Shown here one piece after another: positions 2,011-36,880 of a stretch of 64,000 nucleotides of DNA; within the stretch, counting starts at the first letter, position 1; every line of letters starts with the position of its first letter. A program made the position numbers and the translations under genes. This stretch comes from Candidatus Marinacidobacterales bacterium. Its GTDB lineage: Bacteria; Acidobacteriota; Vicinamibacteria; Marinacidobacterales; SMYC01. The stretch is from the NCBI GenBank assembly GCA_965237955.1, contig OZ250169.1, positions 5,856,001-5,920,000 of the forward strand. The letters run 5' to 3'. Under the pieces are notes generated by a model, which was not told the DNA's origin, ran no database searches, and was given only the letters and a program-made list of their open reading frames with translations.

Positions 2011-3870
2011 GGATTGGATTCCTCGGATGTCAGTAGGTTTTTCGCGAGCGCCGACTGGATCGCACTCGCCGCAGTGTGCCCGAGGCCGCAGATCGAGGCG
2101 TCTTTCATGACTCGAGCGAGCTCGTCGACGAGGGCGATGTCGGCGGCGTTGTTACCCCCGTTGATGTTGCTACGGACAAGTCGCTGCAAAGCTTCCTCGA
2201 CACGTACCGTGCCGACGCGACAGGGAACGCATTGACCACAGGATTCATCGCGGAAGAACGCGGCGACTCGAAGCAATATGGCCGACATATCGGCGCTATC
2301 GTCGAACACCATCACCACGCCCGAGCCGAGCGATGCGCCGATCGCACGCGTTCCTTCGAACGTGAGCTCGACGTCGAGCTCGTCGAGGCCGACGAACGTG
2401 CCCGCAGCCCCTCCGAGCAGGACCGCTTGAATGTTGCTGGCGCTTCCCGACTTGTCCAGAAGCTCCCTCAACGTGGTGCCGAACGGGACTTCATAGACAC
2501 CGGGCCGCTCGACGTGTCCGGAGACACAAAAGAGCTTCCCGGTCCAGACCGTGTCCGGAGACACAAAAGAGCTTGGGACCGGTGGAATCTTTGGAACCGG
2601 TTTGTGCGAACGCTGGGCCGCCTTCGCTCACGATGTCGAGAACATTGACGAGGGTCTCGACGTTATTCACCACGGTCGGCTTACCAAACAAACCTTCTTG
2701 AGTGGGAAAGGGCGGTTTGTTGCGGGGCTCGCCACGGAAGCCCTCGATCGAGTTGAACAGCGCGGTCTCCTCGCCACAGATGTACGCGCCAGCACCACAG
2801 CGGATCTCGATCTCGAAGCGGAAGCCGCCGCCCATCACATCGTCGCCAAGGAACCCGCGGCGCGTCGCCATGTCGATCGCGTTCTGAAGACGTTTCACCG
2901 CGAGCGGATATTCTCCTCGGATGTAGAGGTAGCCTCGCTCCGAGCCGGTCGCGAAGCCGGCTATGGTCATCGCTTCCACGGTCGCGAACGGGTCTTCCTC
3001 CATGAGCACGCGATCCTTGAACGTCCCCGGCTCGGATTCGTCGGCGTTGCAGACGATGTAGCGCGGGGTTGCCGGCGCTTTGGCGACAGCCTCCCACTTG
3101 ATCCCCATCGGGAACGCGGCGCCACCGCGGCCGCGCACACCCGAATCCTTCACCTCTCGGACGATCTTTTCCGCGCCGATGTCGACCGCACGACGAAGCG
3201 CGCGGTAGCCCCCGTGCTCTCGGTACTCGTCGAGGCTCGTCGGGTCGCAGAGCCCGACGCGGCGAAGTAGCCGGAGCCCTTGCTCTCGTGGCTCCTGCGT
3301 CTGCGGTGTGGACGGAGTCGGTTCAGGTCGCTTACCTTTACCCTCGAGGCCTGCCCGGATGCTGGCGACGTCCGCGTCCGTCAACGTCCAGTCCTCATCG
3401 CCTGCGAGCTGAAACAAGACAGCCGGTCCACGCTCGCATTGTCCGAGACACGGACTGCGATGCCACGTTCCGGAATCGAGTGTTCGCTCGAGCTCGTCGC
3501 ACAGAGCGTCGGCTCCCTTCAACTTGCAAGCGATGTCGTCGCAGACATGAGCGATGCGCTTCGGACGTTCCACGGTGGACAACAGTGCATAGAACGTCGC
3601 CACGCCGTACGCTTCCGCGGGTGGCACGGTGAGGCGGCGACAGATGTAGTTCAACGCGCCTGGGCTGATCCAGCCGATCTCGCCTTGCACGGCGTGGAGC
3701 GCGGGTAGCAACAAGTGGCGCTTGTTCTCCGCCGACTCGCGTCCGCCACGGACGACGTGCTCCTCGAGGGGCTCGCCCGGTATGTCGGTAGCCTCGGGCG
3801 CACCTATTAGCGCGTCCACGGCCGCACGCTCGTCCTCGGTGGGCGAGGCGTCCATCCAATGTAAATCCAT
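2007..3870 (-). pseudogene. NuoE-NuoF fusion (FDH NAD(H)/FMN diaphorase subunit), frameshifted by a 37-bp duplication
   Basis: GRGGAAFP, NADESEPGTFKDR, GAGAYICGEETAL, ESCGQCVPCRVG, SICGLG motifs. A 25-bp direct repeat (2513-2537, 2550-2574) splits it into ORFs 2491-3870 and 2007-2564. Confidence 0.82.
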
Positions 3871-23892: not shown

Positions 23893-24064
23893 TCAGCTTT
23901 CAGGCCAGATGCCGAGCTCGCGGTAATAGCGAACCGCGCCCGGATGAAATTCCACGCAGGTATCGCGAACGACGTTTTCGGGATTGATGGGTCATCTGAT
24001 AAACGAGCGCTCCGGTGGCAATGACCATCGCAACGATGGCTGACAGAAGAGGTTGATGTCGCAT
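23893..24064 (-). pseudogene. TAXI TRAP solute receptor with large internal deletion
   Basis: Signal-peptide start joined out of frame to the C-terminal FHPGAVRYYRELG. Confidence 0.65.
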
Positions 24065-24112
24065 CGGCGGCGATGATAGTGGCGACCTGAGGCCGAAGCA
24101 AGCCCTGATGGT

Positions 24113-26242
24113 TTACAGCTTGACGTCGACGCTGAAAAAAGCCGAGATCGGAGGAGCGGGAATCACGGACGTAGCGCCGAAGCCGCGCAAGAAATACTCG
24201 CGATCGGTCAGATTCTTCACGTTGAGTCGTAGCTGGACCGCACCGATGCGGTAGAAGATCATCGCGTCGAACGTCAGCACACCGTCGAGCGCGAACAGGT
24301 TGTCCTCGGCGATGAACTGATGGCTCACATAGCGCCCGCCGCCACCGATGCCCCAATTCGAGGCGAAGTCGTGGCTGAGCCAGAAATTCAGAATGTGTTT
24401 CGGTGCGAACGCCGGATCGTTGCCCGAACGATCGAAAACCACGACCGCCGGCGGCGCAATCGAGACGACGACGGCTTCGCTGAAATTGGTGAGCTCGGAG
24501 TCGTTGAACGCGTACGAGACAAAAGCTCTCGAGCGCGAGCTCGGTTGCGCCGCGAAATCGATCTCGAATCCGCGCGAGCGTTGGTTGCCGGTCTGCTGCG
24601 TGAAGCCGGTGTCGTCCGGGATCGGGATGTTCTCGCGTTCGAGTTGATAGACGGCGAACGTCGTCTCCGCGTTCAAGGCACCGAAGCGCTTCTTGACGCC
24701 GGCTTCGATCTGAGTGCTTCGCTCGGGCACGAGCTCACCGATGACCCGCGGTGATGGCGGGGCGAACGATCGCGAGAAGTTTCCGTAGATCGAAAGCTCG
24801 TCGTTGGGTGCCGCGAGAATTCCGACCATGGGGGAGAACTCGGTGTCGTTGCGCTCGCGTGCGCTAGCCTCGTCCTTGAAATCGATATTGTCGACGCGCC
24901 CGCCTATTAACACGTTCACGTACTCACCGAGCTCGATCTGGTCGATCACGTACGGAGCGATGACGATGCTTCGGGAATCTCCGGCGAAGCCCACGCCCGG
25001 AAGAGGAATCGGCTCGGAGCCCGGGGGCTCGACGGGGTCGAATAGATCGACAAGAGGGAGAAGGCTCACGTCGAGGGTGAACACGTCCGCGTAGCGGGCG
25101 AGCTCGAGCCCAGTCAACAAGCTGTGTCGTACCGCGCCGGTGTCGAAGGAGAAGATTGCTTCGAACTGGTTTCCAGTGAGATCTTGCCGGTCGTCGAGCT
25201 CGAGAAGACTGCGGATGAGACCGAACGATGTCGGCCCGGTCGGAATGGCGCCGTTGAAGATGGTGCCGTTCGTCATCCAGTCGAGATCGCGCCGATAGAA
25301 CTTGTCACGTATCGTGACCGAGCTCGAGATTACTTTTTGGTAGTCCGCCTGGAAGCGAAAGACTTCCTGTTCGGACATGTCGAGCGGTGACTGGTAGTTG
25401 GTGTCGAGCTCGACGGGCGCAATCTCGTTACCAAGAGCCGGGATACCGCTATCCGGCGTGAAGTCCGCGTTCATGTACTCGAAGTTGACGTTGAGATTCG
25501 AGGTGTCGTCGAATCGCCACGTCAGCGCGGGGTTGATGGCGGCGGTGCGTCCGCCCTTGCCCTCGCGATGGCTCCCTTGGTCACGGAAGAGTCCGTTCAA
25601 GCGAAACGACACGGGGTTGTCGACGCTTCCGGTGTTCCAATCGAAGGAACCCTCGTAGTTGTCGAACGAGCCCGCGGCCAGATGGAAATCGAGGAAATTA
25701 GCCGGCGCGGGCTGTTTTCTGACGAGGTTGATCGCCCCCGCCAACGGGTTGCTCCCATAGAGAAAACCGCCCGGCCCTTTCAGCACTTCCACGCGCTCCA
25801 CGTTGTAGAGCTGGTAGAAGGTCGCTTCCGGCTCGGCGGCTCCGTCGGTGAGCACGAGAGCACTCGACAACGAATCGAATCCGCGGATGTAGAAGAAATC
25901 GTGGACCCCGTTTTGCGTTTGAATATTAATGTTACTGACGTTCACCAAAGCGTCGCCGACCACTCGATCGAACTGCTCGTTGAACAACGGCGCGGTCACG
26001 ACACCGACGTTACTCGGCGTCAGCCGTAACTCGAGAGGGAGGCGAGCAATCACCGTATTCGAGTTGGGCACGTAGGGCAGTGAATCTTCGACGTAGACGT
26101 ACTCCTCCACTTCCGGACGAGGCGCTCCGGAGGTTGTCTTCTCCGGGTCGCCGTCCGTTTTTTGCTCTTGTGGGTGAGCGAGACCCGCAAACAGCGTGAT
26201 GGCGGCTAGTAGAAACGCGATCGTTCCATGCTTATGGCCCAT
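24113..26242 (-). CDS. TonB-dependent receptor
   Basis: Plug motif YNVERVEVLKGPGGFLYG..GAINLVRK; NLTDREY near the C-terminus. Confidence 0.9.
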   Translation of the reverse strand: MGHKHGTIAFLLAAITLFAGLAHPQEQKTDGDPEKTTSGAPRPEVEEYVYVEDSLPYVPNSNTVIARLPLELRLTPSNVGVVTAPLFNEQFDRVVGDALVNVSNINIQTQNGVHDFFYIRGFDSLSSALVLTDGAAEPEATFYQLYNVERVEVLKGPGGFLYGSNPLAGAINLVRKQPAPANFLDFHLAAGSFDNYEGSFDWNTGSVDNPVSFRLNGLFRDQGSHREGKGGRTAAINPALTWRFDDTSNLNVNFEYMNADFTPDSGIPALGNEIAPVELDTNYQSPLDMSEQEVFRFQADYQKVISSSVTIRDKFYRRDLDWMTNGTIFNGAIPTGPTSFGLIRSLLELDDRQDLTGNQFEAIFSFDTGAVRHSLLTGLELARYADVFTLDVSLLPLVDLFDPVEPPGSEPIPLPGVGFAGDSRSIVIAPYVIDQIELGEYVNVLIGGRVDNIDFKDEASARERNDTEFSPMVGILAAPNDELSIYGNFSRSFAPPSPRVIGELVPERSTQIEAGVKKRFGALNAETTFAVYQLERENIPIPDDTGFTQQTGNQRSRGFEIDFAAQPSSRSRAFVSYAFNDSELTNFSEAVVVSIAPPAVVVFDRSGNDPAFAPKHILNFWLSHDFASNWGIGGGGRYVSHQFIAEDNLFALDGVLTFDAMIFYRIGAVQLRLNVKNLTDREYFLRGFGATSVIPAPPISAFFSVDVKL

Positions 26243-26499
26243 TCAATCTCCGTGCTCAAGAACGCCCCGGCAATGCAATTCGCCATCATAGATAGGGGGG
26301 GACTTGGCCGCAAATCTCGTCGCTTTACATTCGGAGAGCGCTGAAATACTTTGGAGTCCTCAGACACTCTCCATGAGAGGACCGATCGGTGAAACGATTC
26401 AACGCCATCTTCAACTGGCACGAAGAGCTGCTTAGGCTGGTTCCGGTGAATTGAGTGGGGATGTGATGGACGCAGCTCGCGAAAGAACATGAAAAACAT

Positions 26500-26700
26500 T
26501 TCCGGTTAAGGCAGACTGGTGCGGTCCGGAGCGGTGAGATCGACGAACCAGTGGGGCCGTTGAGACCGTTCAACTGGCTGATCCGGCGTGTGCGTTGGTA
26601 GAGCGAATAAGTAGGCGTCGCCGTGAGCGCTTTGTCCACGGTGCGAGCCTGAGATCCTGATTAATGAAGTTGATTAGCACGCGCTCCGCTGCGGCGATGA
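26500..26700 (+). ncRNA. Candidate IS110 bridge-type RNA (repeated in each copy)
   Basis: Non-coding left end with long-range stem CGGAGCG/CGCTCCG, internal hairpins, and segments matching the flank and the donor end (see findings). Confidence 0.55.
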
Positions 26701-26709
26701 GGAGGAGCG

Positions 26710-27987
26710 ATGCCAAACCGGATTGCTGGGATAGACGTTCACAAGAAGATGCTGGCGGTGGTGGTCGCCGACATCGCAGTAGAGGGCGAGTATAAGTTTT
26801 CGCGCCGGCGTGTGGGTACGAGACCGAGTGAGCTTCGGGCTCTGGCGGAGTGGCTGGTGGCCGAGGGGGTCGATGAAGTAGTGATGGAATCGACCGCGCA
26901 ATATTGGCGCCCGGTGTGGGAGGCGTTGGAGCGGTCCTGGGCTCCGCAGTGCCGAGCTCGGCCGGGCGCGGGTGCGCAGTCGGGCAACTTGCATCTGGCG
27001 CAAGCAAAGTCGAATCGCGGCGCGCGGGGTCGGAAGCGGGATTTTCCGGATGCCGAACGATTGGTGAAGCGTTTGGTGGCGCAGGAGCTGACTCTAAGCT
27101 TCGTTCCCGAGCCGGAGCAGCGCCTGTGGCGAACGGTGATGCGCCGCAAGTACCAGTTCACGCGTAACCGGGTTCAGCTCCAAAACCGCCTAGAGTCGTT
27201 GCTGGAGGAAGCGCATCTAAAGTTGTCGAGCCTGGTGTCGGATCTTCTGGGGCTGAGTGCGCGGCAGATGTTGCAAGCCTTGGCGGACGGGGAAACGGAG
27301 CCGGCCCGCTTGGCGGAGTTGGCCGACCGTCGATTGCGTGCCACGCCCGAGCAGTTGTGCGATGCGCTCGGCGCGTGTGCCGATCTCAACCCCGTCTATC
27401 GGAAGCTCGTGCAAATGACGCTCGAGGAATTACGATTGCTCGAAGAGCAGAGCGCGCAACTCGATGAAGAGATGGCGCATCTGCTCGGCGAGCATCAAGC
27501 AGCTGTGCAACGACTCGCTGAAGTGCCTGGGCTCGGCGTGGATTCGGCGCAGCAGATCATCGCGGAAGTCGGGGCGAGCGCCGAGACGTTTCCGTCGGCC
27601 AAGCACCTCGCGTCCTGGGTGGGCGTGTGCCCCGGAGAGCACGAAAGCGCCGGCAAAAGCTACAGCCATCGCTCGCCCAAAGGCAGTCGGCCGATGCGCC
27701 GCCTCCTCAATCAAGCCGCCAACGCGGCCGTCAAGACCAAAGGGAGTTTCTTCCAGCTCGTGTACCGGCGGTTGGTTCCACGCCTGGGGCACGCGCAAGC
27801 CATCTGGGCCGTTGCCCATCGGTTGTGTCGTTTAATCTGGAAGATTCTCCACCAGGGCGTTGACTATGAGGAACGTGGCCCCGACGTTAGCCGCGCGCGC
27901 TCCAAACGACGCATTGCCAATATGATCCGCGACCTGCGCAAACTCGGATATCACATCGAGCCTTCTCTACGGGGAGATCCAGCATGA
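26710..27987 (+). CDS. IS110-family recombinase/transposase (DEDD RuvC-like + Transposase_20)
   Basis: GIDVHK, MESTAQYW, RDFPDA, VPGLG, HESAGK. Confidence 0.95.
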   Translation: MPNRIAGIDVHKKMLAVVVADIAVEGEYKFSRRRVGTRPSELRALAEWLVAEGVDEVVMESTAQYWRPVWEALERSWAPQCRARPGAGAQSGNLHLAQAKSNRGARGRKRDFPDAERLVKRLVAQELTLSFVPEPEQRLWRTVMRRKYQFTRNRVQLQNRLESLLEEAHLKLSSLVSDLLGLSARQMLQALADGETEPARLAELADRRLRATPEQLCDALGACADLNPVYRKLVQMTLEELRLLEEQSAQLDEEMAHLLGEHQAAVQRLAEVPGLGVDSAQQIIAEVGASAETFPSAKHLASWVGVCPGEHESAGKSYSHRSPKGSRPMRRLLNQAANAAVKTKGSFFQLVYRRLVPRLGHAQAIWAVAHRLCRLIWKILHQGVDYEERGPDVSRARSKRRIANMIRDLRKLGYHIEPSLRGDPA

Positions 27988-28223
27988 CGATAGATGTTTT
28001 TCGATCCTGCAATTCGCCATCATAGATAGGGGGGGACTTGGCCGCAAATCTCGTCGCTTTACATTCGGAGAGCGCTGAAATACTTTGGAGTCCTCAGACA
28101 CTCTCCATGAGAGGACCGATCGGTGAAACGATTCAACGCCATCTTCAACTGGCACGAAGAGCTGCTTAGGCTGGTTCCGGTGAATTGAGTGGGGATGTGA
28201 TGGACGCAGCTCGCGAAAGAACA

Positions 28224-29743
28224 TGAAAAACATTTCCGGTTAAGGCAGACTGGTGCGGTCCGGAGCGGTGAGATCGACGAACCAGTGGGGCCGTTGAGAC
28301 CGTTCAACTGGCTGATCCGGCGTGTGCGTTGGTAGAGCGAATAAGTAGGCGTCGCCGTGAGCGCTTTGTCCACGGTGCGAGCCTGAGATCCTGATTAATG
28401 AAGTTGATTAGCACGCGCTCCGCTGCGGCGATGAGGAGGAGCGATGCCAAACCGGATTGCTGGGATAGACGTTCACAAGAAGATGCTGGCGGTGGTGGTC
28501 GCCGACATCGCAGTAGAGGGCGAGTATAAGTTTTCGCGCCGGCGTGTGGGCACGAGACCGAGTGAGCTTCGGGCTCTGGCGGAGTGGCTGGTGGCCGAGG
28601 GGGTCGATGAAGTAGTGATGGAATCGACCGCGCAATATTGGCGCCCGGTGTGGGAGGCGTTGGAGCGGTCCTGGGCTCCGCAGTGCCGAGCTCGGCCGGG
28701 CGCGGGTGCGCAGTCGGGCAACTTGCATCTGGCGCAAGCAAAGTCGAATCGCGGCGCGCGGGGTCGGAAGCGGGATTTTCCGGATGCCGAACGATTGGTG
28801 AAGCGTTTGGTGGCGCAGGAGCTGACTCTAAGCTTCGTTCCCGAGCCGGAGCAGCGCCTGTGGCGAACGGTGATGCGCCGCAAGTACCAGTTCACGCGTA
28901 ACCGGGTTCAGCTCCAAAACCGCCTAGAGTCGTTGCTGGAGGAAGCGCATCTAAAGTTGTCGAGCCTGGTGTCGGATCTTCTGGGGCTGAGTGCGCGGCG
29001 GATGTTGCAAGCCTTGGCGGACGGGGAAACGGAGCCGGCCCGCTTGGCGGAGTTGGCCGACCGTCGATTGCGTGCCACGCCCGAGCAGTTGTGCGATGCG
29101 CTCGGCGCGTGTGCCGATCTCAACCCCGTCTATCGGAAGCTCGTGCAAATGACGCTCGAGGAATTACGATTGCTCGAAGAGCAGAGCGCGCAACTCGATG
29201 AAGAGATGGCGCATCTGCTCGGCGAGCATCAAGCAGCTGTGCAACGACTCGCTGAAGTGCCTGGGCTCGGCGTGGATTCGGCGCAGCAGATCATCGCGGA
29301 AGTCGGGGCGAGCGCCGAGACGTTTCCGTCGGCCAAGCACCTCGCGTCCTGGGTGGGCGTGTGCCCCGGAGAGCACGAAAGCGCCGGCAAAAGCTACAGC
29401 CATCGCTCGCCCAAAGGCAGTCGGCCGATGCGCCGCCTCCTCAATCAAGCCGCCAACGCGGCCGTCAAGACCAAAGGGAGTTTCTTCCAGCTCGTGTACC
29501 GGCGCTTGGTTCCACGCCTGGGGCACGCGCAAGCCATCTGGGCCGTTGCCCATCGGTTGTGTCGTTTAATCTGGAAGATTCTCCACCAGGGCGTTGACTA
29601 TGAGGAACGTGGCCCCGACGTTAGCCGCGCGCGCTCCAAACGACGCATTGCCAATATGATCCGCGACCTGCGCAAACTCGGATATCACATCGAGCCTTCT
29701 CTACGGGGAGATCCAGCATGACGATAGATGTTTTTCGATCCTG
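28224..29743 (+). mobile_element. IS110 element, copy 2
   Basis: Near-identical to copy 1. Confidence 0.75.
28444..29721 (+). CDS. IS110 recombinase, copy 2
   Basis: 425 aa; one Q->R change versus copy 1. Confidence 0.95.
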   Translation: MPNRIAGIDVHKKMLAVVVADIAVEGEYKFSRRRVGTRPSELRALAEWLVAEGVDEVVMESTAQYWRPVWEALERSWAPQCRARPGAGAQSGNLHLAQAKSNRGARGRKRDFPDAERLVKRLVAQELTLSFVPEPEQRLWRTVMRRKYQFTRNRVQLQNRLESLLEEAHLKLSSLVSDLLGLSARRMLQALADGETEPARLAELADRRLRATPEQLCDALGACADLNPVYRKLVQMTLEELRLLEEQSAQLDEEMAHLLGEHQAAVQRLAEVPGLGVDSAQQIIAEVGASAETFPSAKHLASWVGVCPGEHESAGKSYSHRSPKGSRPMRRLLNQAANAAVKTKGSFFQLVYRRLVPRLGHAQAIWAVAHRLCRLIWKILHQGVDYEERGPDVSRARSKRRIANMIRDLRKLGYHIEPSLRGDPA

Positions 29744-29764
29744 GACGCAGCTCGCGAAAGAACA

Positions 29765-31284
29765 TGAAAAACATTTCCGGTTAAGGCAGACTGGTGCGGT
29801 CCGGAGCGGTGAGATCGACGAACCAGTGGGGCCGTTGAGACCGTTCAACTGGCTGATCCGGCGTGTGCGTTGGTAGAGCGAATAAGTAGGCGTCGCCGTG
29901 AGCGCTTTGTCCACGGTGCGAGCCTGAGATCCTGATTAATGAAGTTGATTAGCACGCGCTCCGCTGCGGCGATGAGGAGGAGCGATGCCAAACCGGATTG
30001 CTGGGATAGACGTTCACAAGAAGATGCTGGCGGTGGTGGTCGCCGACATCGCAGTAGAGGGCGAGTATAAGTTTTCGCGCCGGCGTGTGGGTACGAGACC
30101 GAGTGAGCTTCGGGCTCTGGCGGAGTGGCTGGTGGCCGAGGGGGTCGATGAAGTAGTGATGGAATCGACCGCGCAATATTGGCGCCCGGTGTGGGAGGCG
30201 TTGGAGCGGTCCTGGGCTCCGCAGTGCCGAGCTCGGCCGGGCGCGGGTGCGCAGTCGGGCAACTTGCATCTGGCGCAAGCAAAGTCGAATCGCGGCGCGC
30301 GGGGTCGGAAGCGGGATTTTCCGGATGCCGAACGATTGGTGAAGCGTTTGGTGGCGCAGGAGCTGACTCTAAGCTTCGTTCCCGAGCCGGAGCAGCGCCT
30401 GTGGCGAACGGTGATGCGCCGCAAGTACCAGTTCACGCGTAACCGGGTTCAGCTCCAAAACCGCCTAGAGTCGTTGCTGGAGGAAGCGCATCTAAAGTTG
30501 TCGAGCCTGGTGTCGGATCTTCTGGGGCTGAGTGCGCGGCAGATGTTGCAAGCCTTGGCGGACGGGGAAACGGAGCCGGCCCGCTTGGCGGAGTTGGCCG
30601 ACCGTCGATTGCGTGCCACGCCCGAGCAGTTGTGCGATGCGCTCGGCGCGTGTGCCGATCTCAACCCCGTCTATCGGAAGCTCGTGCAAATGACGCTCGA
30701 GGAATTACGATTGCTCGAAGAGCAGAGCGCGCAACTCGATGAAGAGATGGCGCATCTGCTCGGCGAGCATCAAGCAGCTGTGCAACGACTCGCTGAAGTG
30801 CCTGGGCTCGGCGTGGATTCGGCGCAGCAGATCATCGCGGAAGTCGGGGCGAGCGCCGAGACGTTTCCGTCGGCCAAGCACCTCGCGTCCTGGGTGGGCG
30901 TGTGCCCCGGAGAGCACGAAAGCGCCGGCAAAAGCTACAGCCATCGCTCGCCCAAAGGCAGTCGGCCGATGCGCCGCCTCCTCAATCAAGCCGCCAACGC
31001 GGCCGTCAAGACCAAAGGGAGTTTCTTCCAGCTCGTGTACCGGCGCTTGGTTCCACGCCTGGGGCACGCGCAAGCCATCTGGGCCGTTGCCCATCGGTTG
31101 TGTCGTTTAATCTGGAAGATTCTCCACCAGGGCGTTGACTATGAGGAACGTGGCCCCGACGTTAGCCGCGCGCGCTCCAAACGACGCATTGCCAATATGA
31201 TCCGCGACCTGCGCAAACTCGGATATCACATCGAGCCTTCTCTACGGGGAGATCCAGCATGACGATAGATGTTTTTCGATCCTG
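29765..31284 (+). mobile_element. IS110 element, copy 3
   Basis: Near-identical; preceded by only 23 bp of duplicated upstream DNA. Confidence 0.75.
29985..31262 (+). CDS. IS110 recombinase, copy 3
   Basis: 425 aa; same protein as copy 1. Confidence 0.95.
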   Translation: MPNRIAGIDVHKKMLAVVVADIAVEGEYKFSRRRVGTRPSELRALAEWLVAEGVDEVVMESTAQYWRPVWEALERSWAPQCRARPGAGAQSGNLHLAQAKSNRGARGRKRDFPDAERLVKRLVAQELTLSFVPEPEQRLWRTVMRRKYQFTRNRVQLQNRLESLLEEAHLKLSSLVSDLLGLSARQMLQALADGETEPARLAELADRRLRATPEQLCDALGACADLNPVYRKLVQMTLEELRLLEEQSAQLDEEMAHLLGEHQAAVQRLAEVPGLGVDSAQQIIAEVGASAETFPSAKHLASWVGVCPGEHESAGKSYSHRSPKGSRPMRRLLNQAANAAVKTKGSFFQLVYRRLVPRLGHAQAIWAVAHRLCRLIWKILHQGVDYEERGPDVSRARSKRRIANMIRDLRKLGYHIEPSLRGDPA

Positions 31285-31498
31285 CAATTCGCCATCATAG
31301 ATAGGGGGGGACTTGGCCGCAAATCTCGTCGCTTTACATTCGGAGAGCGCTGAAATACTTTGGAGTCCTCAGACACTCTCCATGAGAGGACCGATCGGTG
31401 AAACGATTCAACGCCATCTTCAACTGGCACGAAGAGCTGCTTAGGCTGGTTCCGGTGAATTGAGTGGGGATGTGATGGACGCAGCTCGCGAAAGAACA

Positions 31499-33018
31499 TG
31501 AAAAACATTTCCGGTTAAGGCAGACTGGTGCGGTCCGGAGCGGTGAGATCGACGAACCAGTGGGGCCGTTGAGACCGTTCAACTGGCTGATCCGGCGTGT
31601 GCGTTGGTAGAGCGAATAAGTAGGCGTCGCCGTGAGCGCTTTGTCCACGGTGCGAGCCTGAGATCCTGATTAATGAAGTTGATTAGCACGCGCTCCGCTG
31701 CGGCGATGAGGAGGAGCGATGCCAAACCGGATTGCTGGGATAGACGTTCACAAGAAGATGCTGGCGGTGGTGGTCGCCGACATCGCAGTAGAGGGCGAGT
31801 ATAAGTTTTCGCGCCGGCGTGTGGGCACGAGACCGAGTGAGCTTCGGGCTCTGGCGGAGTGGCTGGTGGCCGAGGGGGTCGATGAAGTAGTGATGGAATC
31901 GACCGCGCAATATTGGCGCCCGGTGTGGGAGGCGTTGGAGCGGTCCTGGGCTCCGCAGTGCCGAGCTCGGCCGGGCGCGGGTGCGCAGTCGGGCAACTTG
32001 CATCTGGCGCAAGCAAAGTCGAATCGCGGCGCGCGGGGTCGGAAGCGGGATTTTCCGGATGCCGAACGATTGGTGAAGCGTTTGGTGGCGCAGGAGCTGA
32101 CTCTAAGCTTCGTTCCCGAGCCGGAGCAGCGCCTGTGGCGAACGGTGATGCGCCGCAAGTACCAGTTCACGCGTAACCGGGTTCAGCTCCAAAACCGCCT
32201 AGAGTCGTTGCTGGAGGAAGCGCATCTAAAGTTGTCGAGCCTGGTGTCGGATCTTCTGGGGCTGAGTGCGCGGCGGATGTTGCAAGCCTTGGCGGACGGG
32301 GAAACGGAGCCGGCCCGCTTGGCGGAGTTGGCCGACCGTCGATTGCGTGCCACGCCCGAGCAGTTGTGCGATGCGCTCGGCGCGTGTGCCGATCTCAACC
32401 CCGTCTATCGGAAGCTCGTGCAAATGACGCTCGAGGAATTACGATTGCTCGAAGAGCAGAGCGCGCAACTCGATGAAGAGATGGCGCATCTGCTCGGCGA
32501 GCATCAAGCAGCTGTGCAACGACTCGCTGAAGTGCCTGGGCTCGGCGTGGATTCGGCGCAGCAGATCATCGCGGAAGTCGGGGCGAGCGCCGAGACGTTT
32601 CCGTCGGCCAAGCACCTCGCGTCCTGGGTGGGCGTGTGCCCCGGAGAGCACGAAAGCGCCGGCAAAAGCTACAGCCATCGCTCGCCCAAAGGCAGTCGGC
32701 CGATGCGCCGCCTCCTCAATCAAGCCGCCAACGCGGCCGTCAAGACCAAAGGGAGTTTCTTCCAGCTCGTGTACCGGCGGTTGGTTCCACGCCTGGGGCA
32801 CGCGCAAGCCATCTGGGCCGTTGCCCATCGGTTGTGTCGTTTAATCTGGAAGATTCTCCACCAGGGCGTTGACTATGAGGAACGTGGCCCCGACGTTAGC
32901 CGCGCGCGCTCCAAACGACGCATTGCCAATATGATCCGCGACCTGCGCAAACTCGGATATCACATCGAGCCTTCTCTACGGGGAGATCCAGCATGACGAT
33001 AGATGTTTTTCGATCCTG
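31499..33018 (+). mobile_element. IS110 element, copy 4
   Basis: Near-identical; ends gatccTG before unique flank. Confidence 0.75.
31719..32996 (+). CDS. IS110 recombinase, copy 4
   Basis: 425 aa; same protein as copy 2. Confidence 0.95.
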   Translation: MPNRIAGIDVHKKMLAVVVADIAVEGEYKFSRRRVGTRPSELRALAEWLVAEGVDEVVMESTAQYWRPVWEALERSWAPQCRARPGAGAQSGNLHLAQAKSNRGARGRKRDFPDAERLVKRLVAQELTLSFVPEPEQRLWRTVMRRKYQFTRNRVQLQNRLESLLEEAHLKLSSLVSDLLGLSARRMLQALADGETEPARLAELADRRLRATPEQLCDALGACADLNPVYRKLVQMTLEELRLLEEQSAQLDEEMAHLLGEHQAAVQRLAEVPGLGVDSAQQIIAEVGASAETFPSAKHLASWVGVCPGEHESAGKSYSHRSPKGSRPMRRLLNQAANAAVKTKGSFFQLVYRRLVPRLGHAQAIWAVAHRLCRLIWKILHQGVDYEERGPDVSRARSKRRIANMIRDLRKLGYHIEPSLRGDPA

Positions 33019-33061
33019 GTTCGACGAGCTCGAACGCCTCGTCCCTACGCGATAAAGCACA

Positions 33062-33625
33062 CTAATGAATCCGCGGCTCGATCGGCAACGCCGCGACGAT
33101 GTTTGCCTCCACGGTTGCGAGCTCACTCAGCCGCTCGTCCACCGCTTCCGGATCGTCGTACAAGCAAGCGAGCTCGCGGAAGAGCGCCGCGTGTCGTGAC
33201 TCGGCCTTGGCGAGGTCTCCGTAAAATCGCTTCAGGTCGGGCGCTTCCAGGTGCGTTGCGAGAAGCTCGAGTCGCTCGTGCGAGCGGGCCTCGATGAGTC
33301 CGAACAAAAGCAGTCGATCGGTGAGCCGCCCTTGGTTGGCTCGGGCCAGGGCCATGAGCTTCTGCGCGTAGGGGTCGCCCTGGTCGCGACCGAGGGCCAA
33401 CCCGCGCTGCACGATCCGTTCATAGACGGCGCGGAAATGCTGAAGCTCCTCGACCGCGAGCGCGCTCATGCGCCGGACGAGCTCTTCAAACTCCGGATAA
33501 CCCACGACGAGCGACATCGCGGAGGCCGCCGCCTTTTTCTCGCAGTGAGCGTGGTCGACGAGGACGGCATCCATGCTCGATGTCGCGACGTCGATCCAAC
33601 GCGGCGTCGTCTCGGAAACAATCAC
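33062..33625 (-). CDS. miaE: tRNA-(ms2io6A) hydroxylase
   Basis: DHAHCEKKAA, EELQHF, IEARSHER, SESRH-like, PRIH. Confidence 0.88.
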   Translation of the reverse strand: MIVSETTPRWIDVATSSMDAVLVDHAHCEKKAAASAMSLVVGYPEFEELVRRMSALAVEELQHFRAVYERIVQRGLALGRDQGDPYAQKLMALARANQGRLTDRLLLFGLIEARSHERLELLATHLEAPDLKRFYGDLAKAESRHAALFRELACLYDDPEAVDERLSELATVEANIVAALPIEPRIH

Positions 33626-33685
33626 GAGGCCATTGTAATCGCCGTCGGTTGTTCGCTATCATGTTTTGGAGGAGAACTGAGACCC

Positions 33686-34174
33686 ATGTTCCGAGTCGCT
33701 CTTTTGGTCGCCACCGTCGTCGTGCAGGTTCCGCGCGGCACGTCCGAGATCACGCTCAATGACACTACCTTGTCCGTCGAGTACGGACGTCCCTTGCTAA
33801 AGGGCCGTGACATGCTCGGGCAGGCGCCCGTCGGAACCGTGTGGCGTTTGGGTGCGGATCAGTCCACGACGATGTCGGTGACCGGCTCCGCGATTTTCAT
33901 AAATATGGTGGTCGCGAAAGGGGAGTACAGCTTGTTCCTGAAACGGACTTCCGAAACGCGGTGGTCGCTGATCGTGAACAAGCAGACCGGGCAGTGGGGA
34001 ACAGAGCATGACCCGCAACAAGATCTGCTCGGCATTCCCCTGAAGTGGGAAAAGCAAGACGATCCCGTAGAGCAGCTCACCATCGAGCTGACCGAGGAGA
34101 CCGAGGAGACCGGAATCCTGTCAATCGCGTGGGGACAGGAAGTCTTGAAGCAGCGCTTTCGACTCAGCCCGTGA
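33686..34174 (+). CDS. DUF2911-like protein
   Basis: VEYGRP..KGR, VWRLGAD..T, GEYSLF, NKQTGQWGT. Confidence 0.75.
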   Translation: MFRVALLVATVVVQVPRGTSEITLNDTTLSVEYGRPLLKGRDMLGQAPVGTVWRLGADQSTTMSVTGSAIFINMVVAKGEYSLFLKRTSETRWSLIVNKQTGQWGTEHDPQQDLLGIPLKWEKQDDPVEQLTIELTEETEETGILSIAWGQEVLKQRFRLSP

Positions 34175-35125
34175 AAATGCCCCGGAGCCAGTTGAAGGTA
34201 GGTGGCGGCTCCAGTCATCGTTACTCTAGCTGACCTTCTCCTCACGAACAACGCTTTTGCCTAGGGCAAGTTCCTCGAGCTTGGCTTCTAAGATGGGCAG
34301 CGATTCGAAACACGGAACGCGCCTGAAGTTCTTCTCGGTTGCGAGCAAGGCGGAGGCGGCCCATCGCAGAACCATGGAGCCAGCTTTCCAGTTGGTCACT
34401 CGTCGAGTTCGACCTCTGGTACCGCTCCTCGGGAAGGTAGCCGTGTACGTTCCTCTCCTTGTGCTTTCTACATCGCTGCACCTTGTTGCGAGAGCCGAAC
34501 ACCGCATCGATGGCCCGGCGCAACGCTTGCGAACCGTCGATCACGAACAGACACGGCCGCTCGGGATTCAAGCCCCGCTCGACCAAGTCTTCGAGCAGTG
34601 CCGTGGTAACGACTTTGTTTTCGCTTGCTCTTTCCCGAAGACCAAGAACGTGCTTGCAACCCTCAGAATCCACACCAATTACAGCGATGGCGTGGTATTC
34701 GCTGAACACGATCCCGTCCAGGTAGACGAACGAGGATGTCCCACGCGTCGAGCCGTCGCTCCATCAGCTCCTTCAGCGTTTCCGCGCTGCCTTCGACGAA
34801 GTGACGGCTGGCCTCGCTCTTGCTCACTCCAACCGTCTCGGCCATCTTCGGCAGAACCTCGGCGTACTTCCGTGTCGATAGACCCAGCATCAACACCTCC
34901 CAGATCCGCTGGCTCAACCGTGGCGAGCCGCGCATCGCCTCGTACGCCGGAACCGGAACTTCCCTTCCTTCGCCCTTGCCTTTTTTCCTCAGGCGCGGCT
35001 TGCGCACACGGAGCTGACGTTCCGAAAGGCTGACCACCCCATCCTGGTGGCCGTGCCAGCGAACTTCTGAACTTTCTCGCCCCGGGTGTTTCTCGCCCGC
35101 AACGTTCCTCGCCGACAGTTCCAGA

Positions 35126-36880
35126 GGGAGTAACCTGAATGTTGTGTCCGGCTCTGATAATGAGAACGACGTTTCAGCGAGAGCGACGACCACGAAGGGG
35201 CCACGATCTCGCCTAGCAAGAGCGGGGCCGCGAAGCGGTCCCGCCCAAAGTCAACCCGGAGCGAGAGCGGAGCGCGCCGCGAAGTGCGTTCGGCGACGGT
35301 GGACGGCGTCGGCTCAGGAGGATTGGTACGCGAGCCCGATTTCGTTGGATATCTCGGAATTGGCGACGGGGCTCGAAACCGACGCTCTCATTTGCCCCAG
35401 GAGGCGTTTTCTCGAAGCGACCCAACCCTCAGCACCCCCCTTTTTGGTTAACTTACGGGGAGCCTCTCGTAACCTGCCCGTTAGCGAATTGGAAGTTTCC
35501 GATGCGTCGGTGTGTGACGACGACGGAGATACACTGCGTGAAGCGCCTCGCGAGCGCGAGGAAAATGAAAAGCCCCAGGGTAGCCGCCCTGGGGCAAGGA
35601 CCCGTTTACTTGAAAGGAACAAGCAATGCCTTCAGATCCCAAAACCAACGTATCACAAAATTCGCTCTCCGAGTCTCTCGACAACGAAATCGACCGCCTA
35701 CTCAGCGCCGGCCTCGAGAACTTCAGCGTTCGAGAGCTCTTGGGAATGATGCTCTCCGCCGCGGGGCAAGCCGAGCGCCACGCTTACCTTGCCGAGGCCA
35801 CCGGCGACAAAGGTAACGGAGGCTATGACCGCTCGTTGAATGTCGGCTCCATCCCCGTCGACATCCGCGTGCCCAGAACGCGCAGTGGTCAGTTTCGACC
35901 GAACTCACTCCCTCCGGCCTACGAGCGCGGATACTCCGACGAGGTCCAGTCCCTTCTCTTCGGAGTGCTTTGCTCCTCTCGCTCTGTAAACGCCGCGAAA
36001 ACAGCGCTCAGAAAGATGGGCGTCAACGCCTCCCCCGATGAGCTTGACACCGTCGCCTCAGGCTTCATCGAGGAGCTCGAGCTCGTCAACTCACGACCCA
36101 TCGACCCCGACATGCTCGCCATCTTCTTCGATGGTAAGTATGTCGAAATCAAAGAAGACGAGCGTCTTCGGCCTGCTTGTATCTACCTCGTTACCGGCCT
36201 GCACCGCGACGGCAGAAAGAAAGTCCTGGGCTGTTTCATAAAACACCAACGAGAAAACCTCGAGGGTTGGAAAACTGTCCTTCGCTCTCTCGTTGAACGG
36301 GGCCTCAGACGCGTCATGATCGTCATCCACGACGACTTCTCGGGTTTGCTCGGCGTCACCAAGGGAATGTTTCCCAACTCCGATATCCAGCTGTGTACCG
36401 TTCACATGCTCCGGAACGCCAAAACTCATCTCAGCAAGCAGGACGCCTCTGAGTTCACCAAGAGGTTCCGCTCCATCAAAACCGCTTGGAGCGCCGAAGT
36501 CGCCGCTTCTCAATTCGAGGAGCTTTGTGACCGCTTCGAAAAATCCTCCCCCTCCTTCGTCAAGGAATACGAAAGAAACAACCGCACTACATCGCCTTCC
36601 TCAAATACCCCGACGGCGTCCGACGTTCTCTGTCAACGACCAACGCCGTCGAAGCCATCAACAAACAACTCGAGATTCTGCGTCGTAACAGCGGTGGATA
36701 CTTCCATTCCGAGGAGACCGCGAAACTTAAACTCGGCATTGTCGTCACCTCCCTCGAATCCGGCAAATGGCACCGAGTCACCGCAACCGTCAAGGGCGCG
36801 CTCGACCAATTCAACGCCATGTTCGAGACCCGATTCGAGGCAGAATGATGCCCGCGGACACAACATTATTGACAAGTGCC
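35126..36880 (+). mobile_element. Nested IS256-family element with 8-bp target duplication GTTCCAGA
   Basis: GTTCCAGA at 35118-35125 and 36881-36888; IRs share AATGTTGTGTCC. Confidence 0.88.
35626..36849 (+). pseudogene. IS256 (Mutator-like) transposase, frameshifted near 36570
   Basis: NGGYDR..VPRTRSGQF, FFDGKY, HDDFSG, QLCTVH; the shifted frame gives TTNAVEAIN. Confidence 0.82.

Follow-up and report, generated by a model that had tools for sequence, protein, structure and literature searches.

Bridge-RNA recombinases of the IS621/IS110 type (Durrant et al., Nature 2024, PMC11208160) are described as combining DEDD and Tnp domains with a non-coding RNA at the left end of the insertion sequence (IS), which carries target and donor guides, and as inserting scarlessly and site-specifically around a 2-nt core. 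Hu et al. (bioRxiv, August 2026, 10.64898/2026.08.14.744561) report tandem expansion of IS110 loci whose boundaries 'retain almost exclusively LD matches' (LD, left donor), and propose that LD-initiated reactions resolve in place and so duplicate the intervening segment. Xie et al. (bioRxiv, September 2026, 10.64898/2026.08.31.748434) report for IS621 that the core and one guide-matched arm suffice, giving LD-only as well as right-donor (RD)-only off-target products, and that excision copies out a single strand; copy-out has also been argued by Sun et al. (bioRxiv 2025). For ISPpu9 (Pares-Guillen et al., NAR 2025, PMC12288879), an IS110 transposase is reported to use alternative boundaries and to generate circles of different content. 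Here we describe four head-to-tail copies of an IS110-family element, called IS below, in a 64,000-nucleotide stretch of DNA (the window; contig OZ250169.1, positions 5,856,001 to 5,920,000, assembly GCA_965237955.1) from a Candidatus Marinacidobacterales bacterium. The array was probably built by the element's own recombinase acting on the right (left-donor) end alone, with the right end (RE) and its TG core joined to TG sites that the guides do not specify.

The IS element shares with IS621/IS110 the DEDD and Tnp domains, the guide-bearing left-end RNA, the 2-nt core and the scarless, site-specific mode of insertion. It differs from IS621 in its TG core, in a target that is a protein-coding tail rather than a repetitive extragenic palindromic (REP)-type repeat, and in matching no Rfam family. 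DDE elements form (IS)2 tandem dimers and there, as in IS91, one functional end drives the capture of adjacent DNA or the formation of tandem copies; the chemistry differs, being HUH rolling-circle or DDE and using no guide RNAs. One-ended transposition of IS91 is itself cited in the discussion of Hu et al., who define their class by adjacent, same-strand units at least 95% identical with an IS110 module, in which LD and core are kept and there is no RD match. The units of our array are adjacent and on the same strand, are 99.8-100% identical and each carry an IS110 module; as in the loci of Hu et al., the left-donor match and core stand at the unit boundary (TCGATCC-TG at all three internal boundaries) and the other side is unmatched. 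At the level of sequence, the array is thus a clean new example of LD-only, half-match tandem expansion, not a new behaviour, and the original prediction, made from the sequence alone, that this would be unusual for IS110 has been overtaken by the 2026 preprints on recurrent tandem duplication of IS110 modules. It differs from the loci described by Hu et al. in being resolved to the base pair, in involving a compact, cargo-free element instead of a large cargo-bearing locus, and in holding two LD-only joints at one locus, with a 140-bp flank capture and a 51-nt left-end deletion. The half-matches of Xie et al. come from cell-free IS621 and re-analysed E. coli data with a CT core, whereas the array is a genomic scar of a distant IS110 with a TG core. 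The modules of ISPpu9 have related boundary boxes; the alternative boundaries used here, in contrast, show no similarity to the canonical ends.

A repeat search across 24000-36000 returned four direct copies starting at 26274, 28008, 29742 and 31283 (spacing 1734, 1541 and 1734 bp), with a 193-bp leading segment in copies 1, 2 and 4 only, and an intact 425-aa transposase open reading frame (ORF) is present in all four. Exact repeats on this kilobase scale cannot have arisen by chance, and both the four-copy head-to-tail array and the 3275-bp period (1734+1541) of the original prediction are borne out. The ends of the element, however, lie elsewhere than first supposed. BLAST of the 1734-bp unit against the 8.13-Mb single-contig genome recovered the four copies of the array together with five full solo copies and another that is 5'-truncated. 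All full solos begin at unit position 135-138, never at 1, 194 or 217, and share sequence from TCAACTGG (window equivalent 26411) onward; a start of solos at the 216-bp segment, which had been named as the outcome that would make this segment part of the element, is not what they show. Their left flanks are mutually different, yet all read ...(V)(V)(L/F)-N codons, and the right flanks all read TGG TTC GAn GAG CTC..., encoding WF(D/E/Q)ELERLVP...stop. TG flanks both junctions of the array and of the five full solos, with neither terminal inverted repeats nor a target duplication beyond this short core.

The empty allele is present in two metagenome contigs (L088 and L089, about 86% identical through miaE), which were found by an exact-match metagenome scan with the miaE end. 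It reads ...ATCTTCAAC-TG-GTTCGACGAGC... with a single TG, or in fuller form ...TTCAACGTCATCTTCAAC-TG-GTTCGACGAGCTCGAACGG...; an intact PD40-type gene, convergent with miaE, ends there. The array is followed on its 3' side by the same TG-GTTCGACGAGC at 33017. Taken with the solo starts, this allele places the element at 26418-28007 (1590 bp), with its left end (LE) directly after TCAAC-TG. The sub-terminal inverted repeat from which the left end had been deduced does exist (GAAAAACAT at 26491-26499 against ATGTTTTTC in the right end), but the position derived from it, 26490, is wrong by 72 bp. The true left junction is C-TG, which removes the A-TG said to be common to all three sites, and the empty allele once predicted, gcgaaagaac(a)tggttcgacgagc, is contradicted by L088 and L089. 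Checked letter by letter, the array reads F(140 bp flank)-TG-IS(1590)-TG-F-TG-IS-TG-ISΔ(without nt 1-51)-TG-F-TG-IS-TG. This replaces the earlier IS-216-IS-23-IS-216-IS scheme of duplicated adjacent DNA, since the first spacer is 140 bp of true flank plus TG, and the supposed 23-bp captured flank is no flank at all, copy 3 being a 51-nt left-end truncation whose last two missing nucleotides are TG. The three F copies are mutually identical and F is unique to the array locus in the genome by BLAST; searched as a possible gene fragment with blastn and tblastx, it has no match elsewhere in the genome.

Two novel joints hold the array together. Joint 1, present twice (28008 and 31283), reads ...TTTTTCGATCC-TG-CAATTCGCC, an exact right end with its core, running into the right half of site P, which lies 142 bp upstream of the left end; CAATTCGCC is the sequence at 26276 and begins CAATTC. 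Joint 2, present once (29742), reads ...TTTTTCGATCC-TG-GACGCAG; its partner is site S, which lies 49 nt into the left end (sequence at 26469). The original prediction had recognised that RE-TG runs into CAATTCGCC or GACGCAG from upstream, and its central proposal, that the recombinase joins its right end to cryptic TG sites and so amplifies the element, survives in three exact RE/core joints with unguided partners, although its anatomical details do not. We scored the 48 TG dinucleotides in 26000-26720 by ungapped identity to the four half-site pairs, with 8 nt per side. The scores of P and S are 2-3 of 16, which places them 25th to 41st among the 48, against 16 for the true left junction; their RD matches are 1/8 for P and 2/8 for S, and both come 27-30 of 48 when RD is used for scoring. 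Because neither site has half-site similarity, both joints are LD-only, with a left-donor match, the core and nothing else. Guide similarity is thereby ruled out, for ungapped matches, as the reason for the choice of P and S; a bulged resemblance of P (CAA-TG...TTCG) was seen by eye only. A sigma-70 promoter scan of 26200-30100 returned no sites, and we abandoned the notion of a junction promoter created by the new joints.

The guides against which these joints are judged can be read in the left end. The transposase carries DEDD_Tnp_IS110 (PF01548, E=7e-15) and Transposase_20 (PF02371, E=1e-18) domains and, together with the short core, the specific target and the guides, these identify the element as IS110 family (IS110 subgroup), of the bridge-RNA type. 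CGAACCAGT is the reverse complement of ACTGGTTCG (core and right target), TTCAACTGG equals the left target and core, and GATCCTG equals the right-end terminus and core. Support for the guides comes from a homologue set of 79 loci, mostly from Acidobacteriota metagenome-assembled genomes (MAGs), with transposases 68-86% identical. Among 44 elements with both a 5' guide and a right end, representing 33 distinct guide/flank combinations, the right target predicted by the guide agrees with the real flank at 2.76 of 5 positions on average, against 1.39 when permuted (maximum 2.12 in 2000 permutations); 12 of the 33 combinations score at least 4, and four more fit by eye with a 1-nt shift. In 19 of 21 homologous elements the donor guide is the same as the final 5 nt of the right end, with which it covaries (GATCC here, GACTC, GACCC). 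An alignment of 16 sequences folds into a closing stem and two stem-loops with the guides in internal loops, and 7 of the 39 consensus pairs show compensatory changes. A single-sequence fold of the left end is no better than shuffles (z-score -0.05), and an Rfam scan of 26000-33400 with E up to 1 gave no matches. One solo (s1, genome C1:4855113-4856709, minus strand) has a right end CGACCC instead of CGATCC and an unchanged donor guide, a natural mismatch; CGACCC is the form typical of most homologues.

The shortest history that would account for the layout has two events. Each would join RE and TG to a cryptic TG close to the left end, duplicating what lies between them. In the first step the right-end junction would recombine with site P, turning F-IS into F-IS-F-IS, either between sister chromosomes or through re-entry of a copied-out F+IS circle. 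In the second, the right end of copy 2 would recombine with site S inside copy 1, so that duplication of the 3275-bp ISΔ-F-IS block would produce F-IS-F-IS-ISΔ-F-IS. When possible histories are enumerated, with every event a tandem duplication that ends at the right end and starts at a cryptic site, P first and then S is the only two-step order that yields this arrangement. It predicts that copy 3 equals copy 1 and copy 4 equals copy 2, and two of the three informative single-nucleotide polymorphisms (SNPs) agree: at columns 407 and 856, T,A is found in copies 1 and 3 and C,G in copies 2 and 4. The encoded proteins fit as well (1=3 and 2=4, one residue apart). Self-insertion and several circle-integration registers were worked through by hand, and none yields the arrangement together with the SNP pattern. 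The positions of the joints point to the recombinase and its bridge RNA as the likely makers.

Arrays in homologues, which the original prediction had suggested looking for, do occur: tandem copies of the element family are found in 2 of the 79 homologous loci. In another genome, L048 (3710-6903; transposase 74% identical) holds two units that are 100% identical with a period of 1596 bp. Here RE-TG is fused to AAAACACAGG..., 47 bp upstream of the L048 left end, and the flank is duplicated; that left end (...CGCAAC-TG-GTTACC) is placed by the element's own guide GAGCAACTG and by its clade-mates L029 and L050. By its joint, L048 shows an apparently independent case of the same kind. The other locus, L014 (3754-6853), holds two diverged copies (95.7% identical) in near-direct tandem, joined as RE-AG-TG-LE. 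The second copy is frameshifted and differs in its guides, and the additional AG corresponds to the final two bases of the left target. In L078 (5348-8737, minus strand), a distant IS110 (28% aa identity) adjoining the queried element forms two tandem units of 1698 bp, 99.2% identical, with a 2-bp overlap.

Read support was sought in Logan contigs, which exist for the 24 public runs listed; in such contigs depth is no copy number and minor branches are dropped. The letters of X15 match the window exactly; its F contig stands at a depth of 36.8, next to 17.8, 18.2 and 22.5 for the adjacent single-copy contigs and about 185-188 for the element. X16 represents another strain, with SNPs in miaE; there F (15.1) is as deep as miaE (14.6), and a contig running from F into the left end places the element at the same site. 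With contig depth taken cautiously, F appears duplicated in X15 (about 2x) and single in X16, and the expansion would then be recent. The read-depth check proposed at the outset is thus answered in part, with F above single copy in X15 at about 2x, by contig depth only, against 3x in the assembly. In X15, X16, X17 and X1, no contig, minor branches being dropped, bridges RE into F or either novel joint; the left-end contigs run unbroken through S, the RE contig extends 6 letters into a tail-type flank, and no empty allele was found among the contig loose ends. Runs X1-X14 (sediment, marine, hydrothermal-vent and sponge metagenomes from several studies) contain 42-58% of the sampled 31-mers of the stretch, presumably reflecting near-identical element copies. 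As assembled, the array is real, with its number of copies unconfirmed.

Several observations weigh against construction by the recombinase as set out above. Column 1361 (window 27771 in copy 1) pairs copies 1 and 4 and copies 2 and 3, which the two-step history does not predict, and the same alleles at 856 and 1361 are found segregating in the solo copies, which makes the history less clean. Later gene conversion among the copies would account for the misfit and, given that segregation, is its likeliest cause, a second incoming allele being the other. Nothing that we could find in the sequence accounts for the choice of P and S, the X15 depth of F fits about two copies better than three, and the identical, MAG-derived units of L048 could be an assembly product. 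No recombinase activity, circles or long reads were observed, and the supporting literature consists of preprints. The depth of F, together with the lack of read-level confirmation, also speaks for an assembly artefact, in which the locus would hold one or two copies and a repeat or chimeric reads would have been mis-expanded. We consider this quite unlikely: the copies differ at three positions in a structured pattern, the two different and precise RE+TG joints would be hard to produce by mis-assembly, F is above single copy in X15, and L048 has the same architecture.

The joints bear on the remaining alternatives. An off-target insertion of a second copy at P (ggcaa-TG-IS-TG-F-IS), followed by amplification of the block through unequal homologous exchange between copies and by precise excision of the leftmost copy, which would restore ggcaa-TG-caattc, with a similar chain for S, would also explain them, because IS110 insertion leaves RE-TG-(right half of site), exactly as observed; moreover, the array alleles occur in different solos, so more than one donor copy may have been involved, and Hu et al. 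describe IS110 loci as having no target immunity. This route is nonetheless unlikely, as it requires three or more steps per joint, neither the expected ggcaa-TG-GCACGAAG junction nor the IS(1-49)-TG-IS expected of self-insertion at S was found, and P and S do not surpass other TG sites as targets. It is very improbable that F+IS (1734 bp) and ISΔ (1541 bp) are separate mobile variants, each inserted beside a resident copy. Partial or extended IS110 circles can reintegrate according to Hu et al., but F and the Δ left end occur nowhere else in the 8.13-Mb genome and F is native flank in relatives. Finally, the joints share only 2 bp, as would be expected of host replication slippage or illegitimate recombination at TG microhomology without a transposase. 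There is only a slim chance of such an origin, because three independent joints (P, S and L048) fall exactly at the right-end/core cut boundary and random endpoints would not.

On the left of the array lies a TonB-dependent receptor gene (24113-26242) and on its right miaE (33062-33625), both on the minus strand; the parts of the array are listed in Table 1. The 3' end of F1 is the left target TTCAAC, and copy 3, which has no tail mimic (see below), keeps an intact bridge-RNA region.

Table 1. Features of the IS110 array, in window coordinates (LT, left target).
Feature	Position	Strand	Remark
Site P, TG of ggcaa-TG-caattc	26274..26275	+	Cryptic partner of joint 1; unrecombined at the left edge of the array
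F1, 140 bp unique non-coding flank	26276..26415	+	Last ~40 bp are a PD40-type gene tail remnant
Native left junction TG core (LT-TG-LE)	26416..26417	+	
IS copy 1, 1590 bp	26418..28007	+	Transposase 26710-27987
Tail mimic WHEELLRLVPVN-stop in left end of IS copy 1	26416-26454	+	
Bridge-RNA region, IS copy 1	~26478-26709	+	
Target-binding guides CGAACCAGT and TTCAACTGG	26544..26577	+	Guides start at 26544 and 26569; guide-flank covariation in homologues
Left-donor guide GATCCTG	26653..26659	+	Matches right end GATCC and core
Novel joint 1, RE-TG-F (LD-only)	28008..28009	+	
F2, identical to F1	28010..28149	+	
IS copy 2, 1590 bp	28152..29741	+	Transposase 28444-29721
Novel joint 2, RE-TG-GACGCAG; internal site S	29742..29743	+	Site S equivalent 26467-26468
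IS copy 3, 1539 bp, lacking element nt 1-51	29744..31282	+	Transposase 29985-31262, intact
Second instance of joint 1 (RE-TG-F)	31283..31284	+	
F3, identical to F1	31285..31424	+	
IS copy 4, 1590 bp	31427..33016	+	Transposase 31719-32996
TG core and native right target, orphan gene tail WFDELERLVPTR-stop	33017..33055	+	6 bp from the miaE stop

The target, ...TTCAAC-TG-GTTCG... with core TG, lies in the 3' tail of PD40-type genes, and ...AAC-TG-GT(T/C)... gene tails stand on the right at all seven insertion loci. A six-frame motif scan gave 24 matches, 16 with a nearby stop, 11 of which are tails of the target type. Six of these 11 regular-expression hits are occupied, directly after a right end, and five are free (e.g., ATCAAC-TGG-TTCGAAG); the seventh insertion (s4) has a more divergent tail that the expression missed. 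The unoccupied tails are at genome C1: 5574931, 3409550, 5301776, 4436733 and 1289783, and at least one (ATCAAC-TG-GTTCG) is almost perfectly guide-matched yet empty. Several tails, occupied and free alike, belong to short ORF remnants, not full genes. At the array locus, too, the target is an orphan tail, of which about 40 bp before the insertion (26377-26415) and the 39-bp tail after it (33017-33055) survive. L088 (1-310) and L089 (reverse complement, 1-570) carry the full PD40-type gene converging on miaE, and only the last ~40 bp of F are homologous to its 3' end. As these relatives have the full gene and the array locus only remnants, the gene body was lost in the array lineage. A metagenome scan for exact matches to the last 22 nt of F came back empty. 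The empty allele was also sought in 40 related genomes, the nearest of which are from different genera, with flanking genes about 70% identical at the aa level; none of the seven loci recovered there contains the tail motif, and most have miaE next to the TonB-receptor gene.

The left end of the element resembles the tail that it displaces. The first 39 nt from the W codon at the junction encode WHEELLRLVPVN-stop and are identical at 21 of 39 nt to the displaced tail WFDELERLVPTR-stop. This 13-codon mimic, also present in copies 2 and 4, replaces the C-terminal tail WFEELERLVPTDN-stop of the target gene, and at least two homologous loci, L010 (~3677-3716) and L040 (~3679-3718), encode WFRELERLVPVE-stop and WHQELLELVPVP-stop at the same place. 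With a tail encoded by the element, interrupted PD40-type genes keep an open frame and a near-native end. The interrupted ORFs at solos s1, s5 and s3 are open over 825, 673 and 371 codons, and we read their products, from the sequence and with no Pfam call, as PD40/TolB-like proteins, one with a kinase N-terminus. A full-text literature search found no description of tail-restoring IS110 insertions, which is no proof of absence. It is a speculation of ours that the tail was captured by the same boundary slippage that formed the array. More broadly, we hold it possible, if doubtful, that the array captures the way in which this IS110 lineage came by its tail mimic, its most unusual feature, that the 1734-bp F+IS unit is a nascent longer element and that bridge-RNA elements evolve 'self-healing' insertions by boundary slippage that pulls flank or gene tail inward. 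The LD-only joining to upstream TG sites that P and L048 display is the reaction by which a gene tail would be captured.

Bridge recombinases are under development as genome editors and their off-target chemistry therefore matters. The array locus is a base-pair natural record of two right-end-only events at one site, with a third in the homologue L048. The partner TG sites at P, at S and in L048 lack similarity to the guides and are all found within about 150 bp of the left end of their own element, which suggests that the choice of partner follows from proximity and not from sequence. The joints support the recent model in which left-donor-initiated reactions resolve in place and duplicate DNA. 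Separately, the tail mimic shows by what means an element of this kind can reside in coding genes at little cost.

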